DNA of 64,000 nucleotides from Eledone cirrhosa (lineage: Eukaryota): NCBI GenBank assembly GCA_964016885.1, contig OZ024743.1, forward strand, positions 27,652,001 through 27,716,000, given 5' to 3'. Every line of letters begins with the position of its first letter. The first letter of the stretch is position 1. The notes under the pieces were generated by a model. It saw nothing but the letters and a program-made list of their open reading frames with translations, searched no databases and was not told the origin of the DNA. Position numbers and translations under genes: made by a program. Below are positions 4,801 through 55,310 of this stretch, one piece after another.

Positions 4801-5149
4801 TAAAGGACTTGAACAGCTGAAACTACTTCGCTTTTCCTTATTCGATATTTACGCCGTCACTTCTATATGGAATAAGTACGTTGAGTGCTTGAATTGAATT
4901 GCATCAATATTTACCTTAAGAATATATATATATAGAAGTGGTTACACAACAGTTAGTTCACCATACCGCATTGCTGTTGAAGGAGGAAAGCTTCAGGCTT
5001 ACGGCAAGAGCACGCTGGTGGGGTGTTGCTCCTAGGGCTGCTGGTGATGTGGGCCTTCATGTTCTTAGCGCAGGAGTATCCTAGTTTAACTTCGTGTCGG
5101 TTAAAGATGGAGTGGTATTTATGATCTATGGGGAAATATCCATCTAAGA

Positions 5150-5770
5150 GGGCTAGAAATTGTTTTCAAAAATTGGTTTTAACGTTGAGTGAGAAGGGAG
5201 GAGAGAACCAGATAGTTTGTCTATTGTTGCGCTTACTTTTCTTAATGGTGTTGTTGCTAGTGAGAGAGTAAGTGATAGGTTGTGACAAGGCGCTGTTAGC
5301 CAACGCCGTGTTATAGTAGGGTGCCGCCCTGTCAAAGATAGCCTTATTAGAGGAGAAGTTTGAGATTCTAGTACTGATATTCTTAACGAAGTTTATAAAA
5401 ACAGTGGGCGGGTGGCATGAGTTCTTGAGAATGTAATTAAGTTTCTCGTTTAGCTTATGGAAGGGTCTGTTGGTGTGTGAGTGCGAAGGTCTAAATTAAT
5501 GTCTAAGAAATCTACGCTAGAGAGGTTGGTGGCTACTGTGATCCTAAGTCCTAACCATTGAAGGTAGAAGCTGTCTTTTTTAAACCGGTCGAGGTCGTGA
5601 CCACTTTTATGGCTCGATAAAGTCAGTCCATCGTCACGGTATATTCCCGGGTGGAAGTCCGGGAATCTAACACGTAATATGTCTTAGATAAAAAGGCCAA
5701 CCAAGTCACATACGTCGGCACTGTCAAACGATCCCATGTAGACGTCAAACAGGTCTGAAAATGTAGACTT
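5150..5770 (-). pseudogene. PLE reverse transcriptase (palm/thumb) fragment
   Basis: Manual translation LFDVYMGSFDSADVCDLVGLFI*...GIYRDDGL and VDFLDINLDL...KLNYILKNSCHPP..RISNFSS; contains a stop and frameshifts. Confidence 0.85.
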
Positions 5771-6355
5771 CTTAGATAGACACTTTCCCATAGGTCATAA
5801 TTACCGCTCCATCTTTAAACAACATAAAGTTAAACTAGGATACTCCTGCGCTAAGAACATGAAGGCCCACATCACCAGCAGCCCTAGGAGCAACACCCCA
5901 CGAGGGTACTCTTGCCGTAAGCCGGAAGCTTGCCCCCTTCAACAGCAATGCAACACACCAGCTGTAATCTATGAAGCTGTGGTCACTTCCAACCGACCCA
6001 ACGAACCACAGGAGGTCAAATCCTATGTGGGCATTGCGGAGGGCCGATTGAAGGAACGTTTCCTAAACCATCAGTCTACCATCAGGAACCCGGACAGACG
6101 TTCATCCACGAAACTCGCGAGCCACGTATGGTCCCTCAAGGACTCAAGTATAGACTACTCCATTCAATGGAAGCCATCACTAAGTCCAAGCCATACGCAA
6201 GGGGAAATCCGATGTGTGGCTTATGTATTGACAAACGAATAACTATTCTAAAGAGATTACGCAATAGTGATTGCCTAAACACGAGAAGTGAATTTTTCAC
6301 ACATTGTCCACACGTCGCCAAACACCTATTGCATAACTACAAGGCTCCGGACTGA
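5771..6355 (+). pseudogene. PLE GIY-YIG endonuclease (frameshifted near 6175)
   Basis: SCRKPEACPLQQQC-VIYEA...YVGIAEGRLKERFLNH...TKLASHVW, then CGLC...LNTRSE..CPH (ORFs 5859-6242 and 6128-6355). Confidence 0.88.
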
Positions 6356-6511
6356 TTCTTTGTAACTTTATTTTCAACCTAAAAACTTTTCGGCTTTCGC
6401 AGTTATATCCCTTACACCTCTCGCACGGAGTCTAGTATTGCCTGTGTGAAGTGACCGGGTTTCTGCGCATGCGCGTTCGTACGGTTTTCCTTCCTGTTCC
6501 TATAACCATGC

Positions 6512-6561
6512 CCATTCCGAGCTGAGGATCCGCTAAGGTGAAACAATTGATCTCGGTATGG
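6512..6561 (+). ncRNA. Minimal hammerhead-like motif in PLE 3' repeat
   Basis: CCATTCCGAG CTGAGGA TCC GCTAA GGT GAAA CAATTG AT CTCGGTATGG; stem I and palindromic stem III present, U16.1 appears mutated. Confidence 0.6.
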
Positions 6562-52039: not shown

Positions 52040-52252
52040 TTTTAATATCTAATTTAAGCACAGGGCCAGCAAATTTGGGGGAAATGCAAAGTTGATTAAA
52101 TAACATCAGTACTGAGCTGGTACTTTATTTTATCAAATCCAGTAGAATGGGAGGCAAAATTGACATCTGCGGAAATTGAACTCAGAATACATAGGACCAA
52201 AATTTTGGCATTTTAACCGGCGCTCTACCAGTTCTGCCAATCCACAACCCTG
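52040..52252 (-). mobile_element. Diverged SINE A-related copy
   Basis: GGTACTTTATTTTATC..GGCAAA..TGAACTCAGAA..CTGCCAATCCAC. Confidence 0.65.
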
Positions 52253-55024
52253 ATACCAACACTATTAATACATATGTCTATAAATGCAAGTGTATGTTTT
52301 TCACTCGATTAATAGTTTATGTTAATAGTTAATGTTTTCAAAATTCAGACGAGGCTTTAGGTTAGTAAGACCAACCCATGGATATAAAACGTTGATTTTT
52401 GCATCTAAAGATTACACTTATTATAAGCATACTTTGAAAATCAAACCTATATGGATAAAAGAGATTTGGAAACTAAAATCAGTGCTTTGATATTCTGTGT
52501 TATGCAAGAATAACGAACTTAATGTGTGTGAGTGTGTGTGTGTATGTGTGGAGGTATGTGTTCATATAATATTGATATGCTGAGGGTACAAATGTGTTGC
52601 TCACCTCCGGTGTCTATTCTCTGTTGTATAAGCTACTAGCAATTAATGTTAATAAACATCTGTGTGTTGTTAAGTATAGTTTTATATATTATAAGGCGGC
52701 GAGTTGGCAGTATCGTTTTATCTATTATTATATGGCAGCGAATCGTTAGAATTGTTAAATGTTCCCATATTTATTCCGAGGTCAATTTGTTCTTTCATCT
52801 TTTGGATTGTGAGCTCGATAAATTATTTACCAGTCCAGTGTCAGTAGATTAGAGAAATTGTTAGTGTCGGATATAAATATTTGCTGTGTCTTGTCCGACT
52901 TTGTACGTCGCGAGTTCAAGTCACACCTCCTTTTGCAAGGCGCTAAGACAGCCAGATAATATCTGCAATGGAAATACCAATGGAAACATCGTTTCCTTAG
53001 CTGATCTGAAGATCGGCTCTTTACATTCTCATATGTTATATTTCACGTTGAATTGCTAAGAATCTAAGAATGTCTTTTCATTTAAGTTACAGAGCGTTAC
53101 ATAAAATGATGGTATTTGCGTAAATGTTAGAAGGTTTTTTCAAAAGGGTAGCCTCTCGAGCTAAAGAAGAGCCTCATCGGCGTCAACCAACCTGCTAGAA
53201 ATAGAAGCGGAATATACTTTAAATAAAACCATACCGTCTTACCAAATGAAAGGGCAAATTAGACAGGGACGTGGAATGCATATATATATGATCATAGGTC
53301 TGCTGTTCAATCACAGTTGATTTGCAGTGAAAGCTCAACAGTCAACAAAATCAACCATTTATAAGAATGATTTTTGTGGAAAAATAAATACATATATATA
53401 TATAAGTACACACACACACACACAGACTCATACCCCCCCCCCCCCCAACCACACACACACACACACACACACACACACACATATGTATATATATATATAT
53501 ATATATATATATATATATATATATATATATATACACATATATACCATATATATATATATATATAGACATATATATGTGTACGTGAAAGTAAACAAATAAT
53601 AAAGCAAACGACACAGTATATATATATATATATATATATATATATATATATATATATATATATATATATATATATATATATAAACATATGATATATATAA
53701 TATATATACATATATATATATGTATGTATATACATATGATATATATAATATATATACGTATATATAATATATATACATATATATAATATATATACATATA
53801 TATAAATATATGTATACATGATTTATATATAATATATATATACATATAATATATACACATATATATATATGCAAATATAAATTCAGCGAGAATCGTTTTT
53901 CGGCGGGTAGAAATAAGCGAAACGCAGCGTAATATCCGAGTCGTGCTGGCAAGCGCTCCATGGACCAAAAGAGACCAGAGCAATAAACATAGGTTATAAA
54001 GGTCATACAAACTGAGATGGCGGTTAAGAAGATATCAACCACCTAAGCCAAAAAAACGAGGCAAGCTAAACGGGTCAAACAAAATAAATGAAATATTCAC
54101 CCGCACCTCGGAAATGATGGTATAATCCAGTACAGGGTTTCTGCGACACCTAAATCATTAATGCTGTGTGCTTAAAATAATAAGCTTTTGGTATAATGAT
54201 CGAACAAGGCTATCACGTTATCAACAGGTATTTTGTTCTCCGCCAGCGTTGTGGATGACAGAGTTTTGTATTAGTGAAAGCACACGTGTAACTCACAGAG
54301 GAGATATCCACCAGATTTTGGCAAATGAATTCACTATTTCTAAATCAATGCAAAAATTGCCAACACAGCACAAATCGAATTAAGCTATATGTATGTGTAT
54401 ATATAATATATATATATATATACACATATATATATAATATATATACATATATATATATTTATAATATATACATATGTATATAATATATATACATATATAT
54501 ATATAATATATATGTATATATATTTTATAAATATGTATATATATTATATATATATATATATATATATATATATGTATATATATTTTATTAATATGTATAT
54601 ATATTATATATATATATATATATATATGTATATATATTTTATTAATATGTATATATATTATATATATATATATATATATATGTATATATATTTTATTAAT
54701 ATGTATATATATATATATATATATATATATGTATATATATTTTATTAATATGTATATATATTATATATATATATATATATATATATATATATATATATAT
54801 ATATATATATATATATATATATATATATTTCTTTAGGTTTGTTGGTTCACCACTGGATAGAACTGGTCATTCCGTATGGTCAATCCTGGTGTAATATTGT
54901 GAAGAGTACTCAACGCAGTGCAGTTCACCCATCTTCGTTTGTGTAGTTGGTGGTGCGAATACGCAGTTAATTATAAATGAAGTAACAGGAGGCTGGACTG
55001 GTGTAAATACTTGAAAGGTTTATT

Positions 55025-55082
55025 ATACTATGATCATTTCAATGACCGGGTTCCATATGAATCCGGTGATATCATCAGGTAT
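55025..55082 (-). ncRNA. Type I hammerhead ribozyme motif in short element ~54828-55090
   Basis: Minus: ATAC CTGATGA T ATCACCGGATTC ATATG GAACCCGGTCAT T GAAA TGATCA TA GTAT; all three stems plus core; TTGAGTAC at 54906-54913 (minus). Confidence 0.8.
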
Positions 55083-55097
55083 TGGAATATTATATAT

Positions 55098-55310
55098 AGT
55101 TTTAATATAGAAGAGATTCTACAGGACTAGAACTGTTTCATTCTTTAGAAATCATCAGGAATCACTGATGATTTCTAAATGATGATTTCTAAAGAATGAA
55201 ACAGTTCTAGTCCTGTAGAATCACTTCTATATTAAAACTTTTATACTCTGCTATGTATTGAGTACCTTACTTACTGTGGTTACCTCCGATTCAACCCGGA
55301 ATAACGTACA
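55098..55310 (+). mobile_element. Mini fold-back element with apex at the hammerhead core
   Basis: 55098-55158 inverted against 55165-55239 (14-bp duplication TGATGATTTCTAAA in the right arm); CTGATGA T TTCT AA AGAA T GAAACAGTT; tail TTGAGTAC (55258)..GTTACC. Confidence 0.8.

Follow-up and report, generated by a model that had tools for sequence, protein, structure and literature searches.

What does a short sequence shared by the tails of several retroelements do, and why does it stand a few tens of nucleotides before a run of TA? The question is raised by a stretch of 64,000 nucleotides of the Eledone cirrhosa genome (assembly GCA_964016885.1, contig OZ024743.1, positions 27,652,001 to 27,716,000 of the forward strand), the whole of which is referred to here as the window. 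An initial annotation had noted the motif YYGAGTRC in the tails of hammerhead-bearing elements and had proposed that it is a cis signal of Penelope-like elements (PLEs). Our analysis of the sequence indicates that YYGAGTRC is the 3′ strand of a predicted bulged RNA hairpin, RCUC-stem-loop-stem-UN-GAGY-RCUY, and that the elements carrying it are related to each other, four of the eight window families being tied to Hydra-clade PLEs. The proposal of a conserved cis signal was thus borne out, and the signal is tied to the places where insertions end. We put at roughly two in three the probability that the hairpin, which usually occurs twice between the hammerhead and the start codon, binds the element's reverse transcriptase (RT)-endonuclease at each copy and sets the start of reverse transcription at a UA 5 to 9 nt upstream.

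All 12 sites first listed are exact matches on the strands given (4881, 6608, 19340, 22130, 28624, 37093, 50416, 50881, and 55258, plus; 37506, 39035, and 54906, minus). The (TA)n run follows them after 33 to 77 nt, which agrees with the spacing of about 30 to 80 nt claimed for them. The window contains 16 matches, compared with 8.6 ± 2.7 in shuffled sequences, and the four additional ones (32031, 56258, 57668, and 59857) have no run of (TA)4 or longer within about 190 nt and no stem. The 12 sites represent eight families, one of which is common to 19340, 28624, 37506, and 39035 and another to 22130 and 50416.

The enrichment was explored in a sample of 119 segments of 10 kb (1.19 Mb) taken at regular intervals along the same 3.0-Gb genome, which provided 1,985 flanks of TA runs. 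In the interval from 30 to 69 nt before (TA)n, 56 matches were found on the same strand and 3 in the reversed orientation, where about 5 are expected by chance (1.3 per 10-nt bin). At the same distance before CA, TG, GA, and TC runs, only 2, 2, 0, and 1 matches were found. Sample and window together hold 73 matches at 25 to 90 nt, and these fall into 19 clusters, 10 of them with several members, so the enrichment is not due to a single family. Genome-wide, one form of the hairpin gave 20,093 matches versus 2,058 for the reversed pattern. The accompanying TTACC is present at the four positions reported for it (4911, 6632, 28660, and 55280), but the signal does not generally include it. It follows 7 of the 12 window sites, 4 of 18 sampled families of the same genome (about 1.2 expected), and 1 of 48 metagenome hairpins (1.9 expected), and it was rejected as a second conserved element on the last two counts.

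The motif had been placed in an unpaired tail, whereas it is predicted to pair with an upstream RCTC. In the window, ACTC, the complement of GAGT, lies upstream of the motif, and the intervening bases form a short stem that leaves two unpaired bases, the first nearly always T; loops range from a few to about 70 nt. Families with GCTC/GAGC also exist and escape the YYGAGTRC pattern, GAGC being the commoner form outside the E. cirrhosa genome. When a descriptor with a 2-nt 3′ bulge was used, 83 of 167 hits had (TA)n at 20 to 100 nt downstream, compared with 9 to 20 hits for other 3′ bulge sizes. Other stems in the same descriptor gave 3 to 19 such hits versus 83 for RCTC/GAGY, with the exception of RCAC/GTGY (103 hits), a count that likely reflects CA/TG microsatellites. 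Among 35 multi-copy clusters chosen solely on TNGAGY before (TA)n, at least three upper pairs were formed with the 2-nt bulge in 13, and with bulges of 0, 1, 3, and 4 nt in 1, 0, 0, and 2, respectively. In 18 families hand-picked from these 35 after RCTC had been seen (antisense readings, clusters lacking RCTC, and other repeats were dropped), 61 of 72 upper pairs are kept versus 38.9 ± 3.5 after permutation, and the closing pair is A-U in 11, G-C in 6, and G-U in 1. An alignment of 29 hand-picked short hairpins showed pairing in 92% of cells versus 79% when shuffled, and covariation of 0.41 versus 0.18. Rfam returned no match at E ≤ 1 for five loci holding the hairpin; for the window, the 150 matches listed were weak, all below the gathering score, and mostly to microsatellite-like microRNA models.

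The hairpin is also found in other hosts. In the consensus sequences of File S7 of PMC8557442, inspected by eye in the part of that source covered here, Hydra-2_Amil (coral) and Hydra-2_Ajap (sea cucumber) each have the whole hairpin at their 3′ end, and Hydra-1_Ajap has two copies at its 5′ end, so that three of the six Hydra consensi there carry it. Metagenome stretches encoding relatives (261) were reduced to 79 loci, corresponding to 62 families. RCTC lies upstream of 50 of 63 boxes picked by their 3′ sequence alone, in 47 of these 50 the first two bases above the bulge can pair (C-G in 27, U-A in 19), and of 150 pairs 122 are kept, against 81 ± 5. The commonest form in this set is GCUC-Y..R-UU-GAGC-ACUC, which makes YYGAGTRC a local A-U variant. 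Hairpin hits concentrate in the flanks (49 in 41.8 kb) relative to the open reading frames (ORFs; 13 in 156 kb). Mismatches of the G-U type outnumber those of the C-A type by 15 to 4, which favors a sense RNA (p = 0.019). The proteins encoded beside the recurring hairpin in other hosts are only about 40 to 55% identical. The initial annotation knew of no description of the motif, and the literature searched, including the passages covered of PMC3846280 and PMC4209133, gave none for the hairpin, although Repbase or Dfam notes and supplements outside that search could mention it; it is a cis element, apparently unpublished, in retroelements of a known kind.

The assignment of the carriers follows from motifs and from by-eye likeness to published consensi. 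The Hydra clade was defined as PLEs with a C-terminal endonuclease (Craig et al. 2021, PMC8557442), and its published features, in the parts of that paper covered, include RWK, DKT, CxCX5C, CxxC, CxH, and a 3′ hammerhead, together with (TA)n targets, inverted truncated copies, and an optional tail. The same set recurs here. Locus L200 of the same genome contains a single ORF of 714 amino acids with an RT plus a GIY-YIG endonuclease at the C terminus, as read from sequence motifs, and the window pieces 4968-5773 and 5763-6340 match it at 38 to 54% (tblastn). This ORF has RWK at 40, DKT at 117, a CSCRKPDEC linker, CSLC, and CPH, and the window frames have YSCRKPEAC, CGLC, and CPH, the window's own copy being truncated before the RWK/DKT region. 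The ORF of the 28486 family (that of site 28624) has RWR and DKT, and RWR also occurs in the ORFs to which the 37093 and 55258 families are linked. Thus the CxCX5C linker and the CxxC and CxH of the endonuclease are present, and CCHH is absent as judged by eye. Insertion into (TA)n, an inverted truncated copy, and an optional tail are all seen in the window elements.

The association with hammerheads, which are predicted from sequence, stands in part. Seven of the 12 sites have a CTGANGA..GAAA core at most 260 nt upstream; at the others it is farther, partial, or missing, with a core at 279 nt from site 4881, GAAAC only at 28624, 37506, and 39035, and neither part at 19340. The description of the elements as otherwise unrelated did not survive, given that four of the eight window families (6608, the 28624 group, 37093, and 55258) read through into Hydra-clade ORFs. 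Families 4881 and 54906 have both hairpins and no Hydra ORF in the next 1.5 kb and about 0.45 kb, respectively, and are likely non-autonomous. For 22130/50416 and 50881, no ORF link was traced.

Neither does the origin first suggested, in Naiad or Neptune elements, agree with these data. Naiad and Chlamys elements were rejected because their endonuclease is N-terminal and the one found here is C-terminal; six 8-mer forms searched in the Naiad and Chlamys consensus files gave 18 hits, none seen as a terminal hairpin, in a search that would miss matches split between lines. Neptune was rejected because its tails lack the GAGY strand: TN-GAGY was not found in the Neptune-type tails examined (15 of 30 among loci L170-L199), and the Neptune-type loci in this set carry a CX2-5CxxC linker, which together with a CCHH endonuclease characterizes Neptune. 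A homolog search with the window's frameshifted endonuclease, a metagenome scan with a decayed ORF, and a scan of viral contigs returned no relatives.

The positions of the hairpins relative to the insertion ends provide the main evidence on function. The first hairpin (H1) lies 40 to 63 nt after the hammerhead core. Full-length copies have a second hairpin (H2) before the start codon, 59 to 90 nt after H1 (18 references) and about 18 to 66 nt before the ORF start. H2 was seen in tandem or read-through copies only and is not copied at inserted 3′ ends. In the 6608 family (30 loci), ends fall at 6588-6589 (11 of 37 alignments) and at 6655-6660 (20 of 37), the first being 4 nt before ACTC and the second 67 nt beyond the first. 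Across families, the TA run of tail-less ends starts at −9 to −5 from the RCTC of H1 in 60 of 86 ends, and a TA start in this interval was found for 54 of the 80 ends nearest H1 and 45 of the 65 nearest H2. Tail-less ends therefore cluster 5 to 9 nt before H1 and tailed ends 5 to 9 nt before H2. In the metagenome loci, TA occupies −9 to −5 in 43 of 47 hairpins, compared with 17 and 22 in the neighboring windows. The tail is best read as the stretch between the two end points, and its content of H1 accounts for a motif at 30 to 80 nt before (TA)n.

A second hairpin beyond the tailed end was predicted for five window families, and a complete H2 was found at a fixed distance in four of them. Searches past the tailed end in the five families returned 393, 146, 41, 140, and 122 genome matches with near-fixed spacing; the zero obtained with the reversed pattern mostly reflects the family-specific prefix, and what is informative is that the spacing stays fixed within a variable gap. 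As separate observations, some full-length Hydra copies (L234, L235, and L237) begin a few bases before the second hairpin, and the Hydra-1_Ajap consensus, as far as that source was covered, begins before the first.

Among 58 head-to-head pairs of inserted copies, 50 have one tail, 3 have none, 1 has both, and 4 are unclear. With 103 tailed and 109 tail-less arms overall, single tails in 50 of 54 pairs correspond to p = 4e-11, one window locus being counted twice in this test. Each outer end meets (TA)n at a TA that belongs to the element, while the spacing at the inner junction varies from about 0.15 to more than 2 kb. The inner junction of the fold-back at 28486-28677, shared with loci L360-L363 and L366, recurs at the same short sequence in hammerhead stem II, which may represent either a fixed truncation point or a fold-back that moves as a unit.

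These observations suggest the following sequence of events. The hairpin would form in the sense RNA and bind the element's RT-endonuclease, and each hairpin would position priming at the UA 5 to 9 nt upstream. The protein would nick both strands of (TA)n. Each cut end would pair with a different UA, the one preceding H1 in one case and the one preceding H2 in the other, likely through an RT-endonuclease dimer. Joining of the two cDNAs head to head would then give an inverted insertion with a single tail.

Several observations weigh against this reading. The evidence on start sites consists of genomic ends. The offsets vary from −4 to −9 among families (−4 in two), with an ambiguity of about 2 nt from TA microhomology. 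The 55258 family has a fixed tailed end and no H2 stem, only the box AGCACTC, and therefore the RCTC sequence may matter more than the fold. One family supplies 31 of the 73 positioned matches, and the covariation set was, as stated, picked by hand. The hairpin is also marginal in energy: it is the full minimum free energy (MFE) fold in 5 of the 12 window copies, other folds win at 28624, 39035, and 4881, and z-scores in the window range from −2.8 to +0.5, a weak folding of single copies that would fit a protein-stabilized element. RNAalifold recovered only the 4-bp lower stem, in which the three central pairs are invariant. By eye, and in the part of the source covered, the hairpin is partial in Hydra-1_Amil and Hydra-1_Crog and was not seen in the Hydra-1_Obim consensus. 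Among metagenome families, a hairpin with at least three pairs was present in 7 of the 17 with enough sequence after the hammerhead, and 24 of the 34 with enough 5′ flank carry it there, 10 of them twice. Finally, the G-U and C-A counts in the E. cirrhosa families (4 versus 3) do not separate the strands.

The signal could also be read as DNA, either as a duplex with the near-palindrome GAGYRCTC or as a hairpin in single-stranded cDNA, to which the GIY-YIG endonuclease binds or which directs priming of the second strand. GAGYRCTC is indeed nearly palindromic and conserved base by base, the 55258 family keeps AGCACTC only, and the Drosophila virilis Penelope endonuclease needed the tail to recognize plasmid DNA (PMC11167929, in the part covered). 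A duplex site, however, leaves unexplained an upper stem that is variable yet paired, with loops of a few to about 70 nt, the G-U excess points to the sense strand, and H2 is missing from the very inserted 3′ ends whose position it predicts, so that we regard this alternative as unlikely.

Control of expression, with the hairpins as a translational operator before AUG, a promoter, or an RNA-processing mark, and insertions ending nearby since RNA ends are made there, would suit the location of H2 about 18 to 66 nt before the ORF start and of H1 40 to 63 nt past the hammerhead core. Two families without an adjacent ORF nevertheless keep both hairpins, and for this reason a role in mobilization is favored over translation control. 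In addition, the ends lie upstream of each hairpin at TA with equal spacing for both copies, as expected for priming on (TA)n. This makes expression control quite improbable.

A reversed direction of synthesis has still less to recommend it. Here the hairpin would be a stop or template-switch signal, at which an RT copying an antisense or fold-back template halts 5 to 9 nt before the hairpin, making the ends termination points. Self-priming on an antisense template has been argued for head-to-head PLE palindromes (PMC3846280, as far as that paper was covered), and direction is not visible from genomic ends alone. Against it, outer ends that join (TA)n via the element's TA, together with a variable inner junction, are what outer starts and inner truncation would give, and the G-U bias lies on the sense strand. 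Chance, or the neutral common descent of a few abundant repeats, has next to no probability, for although the families have a common ancestor and one of them contributes 31 of the 73 positioned matches, the hairpin persists after family collapse where flanking sequence fails to align, has undergone compensatory changes, and is met again next to distant proteins in other hosts, and chance was rejected on the strand bias of 56 to 3, the bulge specificity of 13/35, and the 83 RCTC/GAGY hits versus 3 to 19 for other stems (except RCAC/GTGY).

Returning to the hairpin as an RT-binding signal in RNA, we tentatively extend the reading, at somewhat less than even odds. The hairpin pair would be a docking site for a dimeric PLE RT-endonuclease and a ruler in which each copy places a priming site about 7 nt upstream of itself, the two sites serving opposite strands of the target, and an RCUC box at the same distance, with or without a stem, would be a general PLE start signal shared with Neptune. 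If true, the tail and the inverted ends of PLEs would be accounted for, and a telomerase-related RT would gain a portable handle of less than 100 nt.

Small bulged stem-loops that recruit their own RT and fix its start position are known from hepatitis B epsilon and from the 3′ stem-loops of L2/R2-type long interspersed elements (LINEs). Compared by description, the Hydra hairpin differs from these in being a tandem pair that lies 3′ of the start and whose downstream copy is not copied. Among PLEs, the RT of Poseidon from the anole Anolis carolinensis initiates internally on its RNA, at two sites between which the tail lies. RNA on the 3′ side of these sites is needed, cleavage and extension take place on both strands, and a dimer has been predicted (Frangieh et al. 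2024, PMC11167929). The two end points of the Hydra-clade elements bound the tail as those start sites do, and our two-hairpin proposal would by analogy extend this two-site internal initiation. Poseidon belongs to a different clade and starts in a stem-loop that is AC-rich and located inside the ORF, its binding motif is placed only within the first 172 nt of the ORF, and the parts of that paper covered describe no repeated hairpin or fixed spacing. Moreover, they report no target-RNA pairing for Poseidon, whereas the Hydra-clade ends fall on TA.

With respect to the published Hydra clade, the parts of PMC8557442 covered name no conserved tail motif or hairpin and make no mention for Hydra of ORF-less families, which here have both hairpins; tails are about 55 to 90 nt in E. 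cirrhosa versus 30 to 40 bp in a figure legend of that paper. Non-LTR retrozymes derive from PLE pLTRs, carry hammerheads, and are non-coding (Li et al. 2026, 10.64898/2026.07.22.740005). They are tandem hammerhead repeats, whereas most window pieces are single fold-back ends of coding elements, and the part of the paper covered has no such hairpin.

How PLEs pick their RNA, and why their insertions have inverted ends and a one-sided tail, has been open for about 20 years, and the sole in vitro study of a PLE found two internal start sites and no signal. With a hairpin that is conserved in distant animal hosts and stands at a fixed distance behind both ends, this question comes down to a few point mutations in an existing assay. 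The hairpin can also serve as a marker in the search for Hydra-type and ORF-less families, and it is relevant to the way in which telomerase-related RTs define their template boundaries.

In the window, a decayed Hydra-clade PLE forms a direct arm at 5763..6656 (plus) with an RT thumb, a CxCX5C linker, a frameshifted GIY-YIG endonuclease, and a 3′ untranslated region; its hammerhead core is at 6522-6545 (plus), and its tail at 6590-6656 (plus) ends in (TA)n. The inverted arm of the same insertion (4933..5773, minus) consists of a broken RT piece and a pLTR end and stops at a tail-less end equivalent to 6589. The H1 of this element, with the motif at 6608, spans 6594..6617 (plus) and reads ACTC-GTCC-loop-GGAC-T-GAGT-GCTC, a variant with a 1-nt bulge (MFE −8.4 kcal/mol, z −2.4). 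In this family (locus L272), both hairpins apparently have a 1-nt bulge compared with 2 nt elsewhere, the second having been read by eye.

The other motif sites belong to simpler pieces. A decayed H1 with ACGC replacing ACTC lies at 4851..4890 (plus), in a family that shows a second hairpin on read-through, and at 19336..19385 (plus) a tail fragment of the 28486 family, lacking the 5′ strand of the hairpin, is enclosed by two TA runs. The H1 at 22107..22139 (plus) has a decayed upper stem and belongs to the tailed arm of a hammerhead-bearing fold-back at about 21790-22202; a further H1 of this family is at 50396..50425 (plus). The 192-bp fold-back at 28486..28677 (plus) lies between (TA)n runs, with a tail-less inverted arm and a tailed direct arm that holds H1 at 28606-28633. 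At least 37 copies in the genome are identical over these 192 bp, and on read-through the family continues into H2 and a Hydra ORF. Additional H1 copies of the family are at 37504..37531 (minus) and at 39033..39060 (minus), the latter in a fold-back at about 38989-39184. The H1 at 37079..37102 (plus; ACTC-CAAA..TTTG-TC-GAGT-GCTT) belongs to a family that reads through into H2 and a Hydra ORF, and the one at 50862..50890 (plus) has a 6-bp upper stem (MFE −10.7, z −2.8). At 54904..54967 (minus), H1 has a 50-nt loop insert and ACTG replacing ACTC, in a family with H2 on read-through. The H1 of the exceptional 55258 family is at 55245..55267 (plus); this family reads through into a Hydra ORF with the 3′ box AGCACTC and no second stem.

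Three further hairpins of the window lie outside the 12 sites. Two have the GCTC/GAGC form: one at 27368..27397 (plus), missed by YYGAGTRC and with an inverted copy at 26867-26892 (minus), and one at 53951..53981 (minus), 84 nt before (TA)n. The third, with a long loop insert, is at 19522..19594 (minus), in the tail of a second Hydra endonuclease fragment located upstream at 20276-20649 (minus).

Upstream of H1, the 28486 family (L359 and L369) shows hammerhead geometry, with stem I ACCCC/GGGGT, a long stem II, GAAAC, and a near-palindromic loop III. Its 5′ core reads CTTGAGAAG or CTTGATAAG in place of CTGANGA, and it may be either a variant or a dead ribozyme. This family is young, with tandem copies about 3.5 kb apart. 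Neptune-type tails (L170, L188, and L196; sample loci L103, L139, and L041) start with ACTCGTG, placed about 5 to 9 nt downstream of the tail-less TA end; a GTGT/ACAC stem often comes next, and these tails have no GAGY. ACTCGTG lies at most 80 nt before (TA)n at 15 of 43 sites, versus 5 reversed, and 4 of these 15 are inside the tail of another family.

Other retroelements in the window were labeled by eye. We take 11019-16374 (plus) to be a frameshifted LINE with endonuclease and RT and an L1/Tx1-like look, 8723-10832 (minus) to be fragments of a restriction-like-endonuclease retroelement, and 59928-60898 to be another LINE piece. Elsewhere in the genome, a tandem array at C1:14235090-14252855 extends over about 18 kb, repeats one hairpin form at least 19 times, and is possibly a satellite derived from a PLE end.

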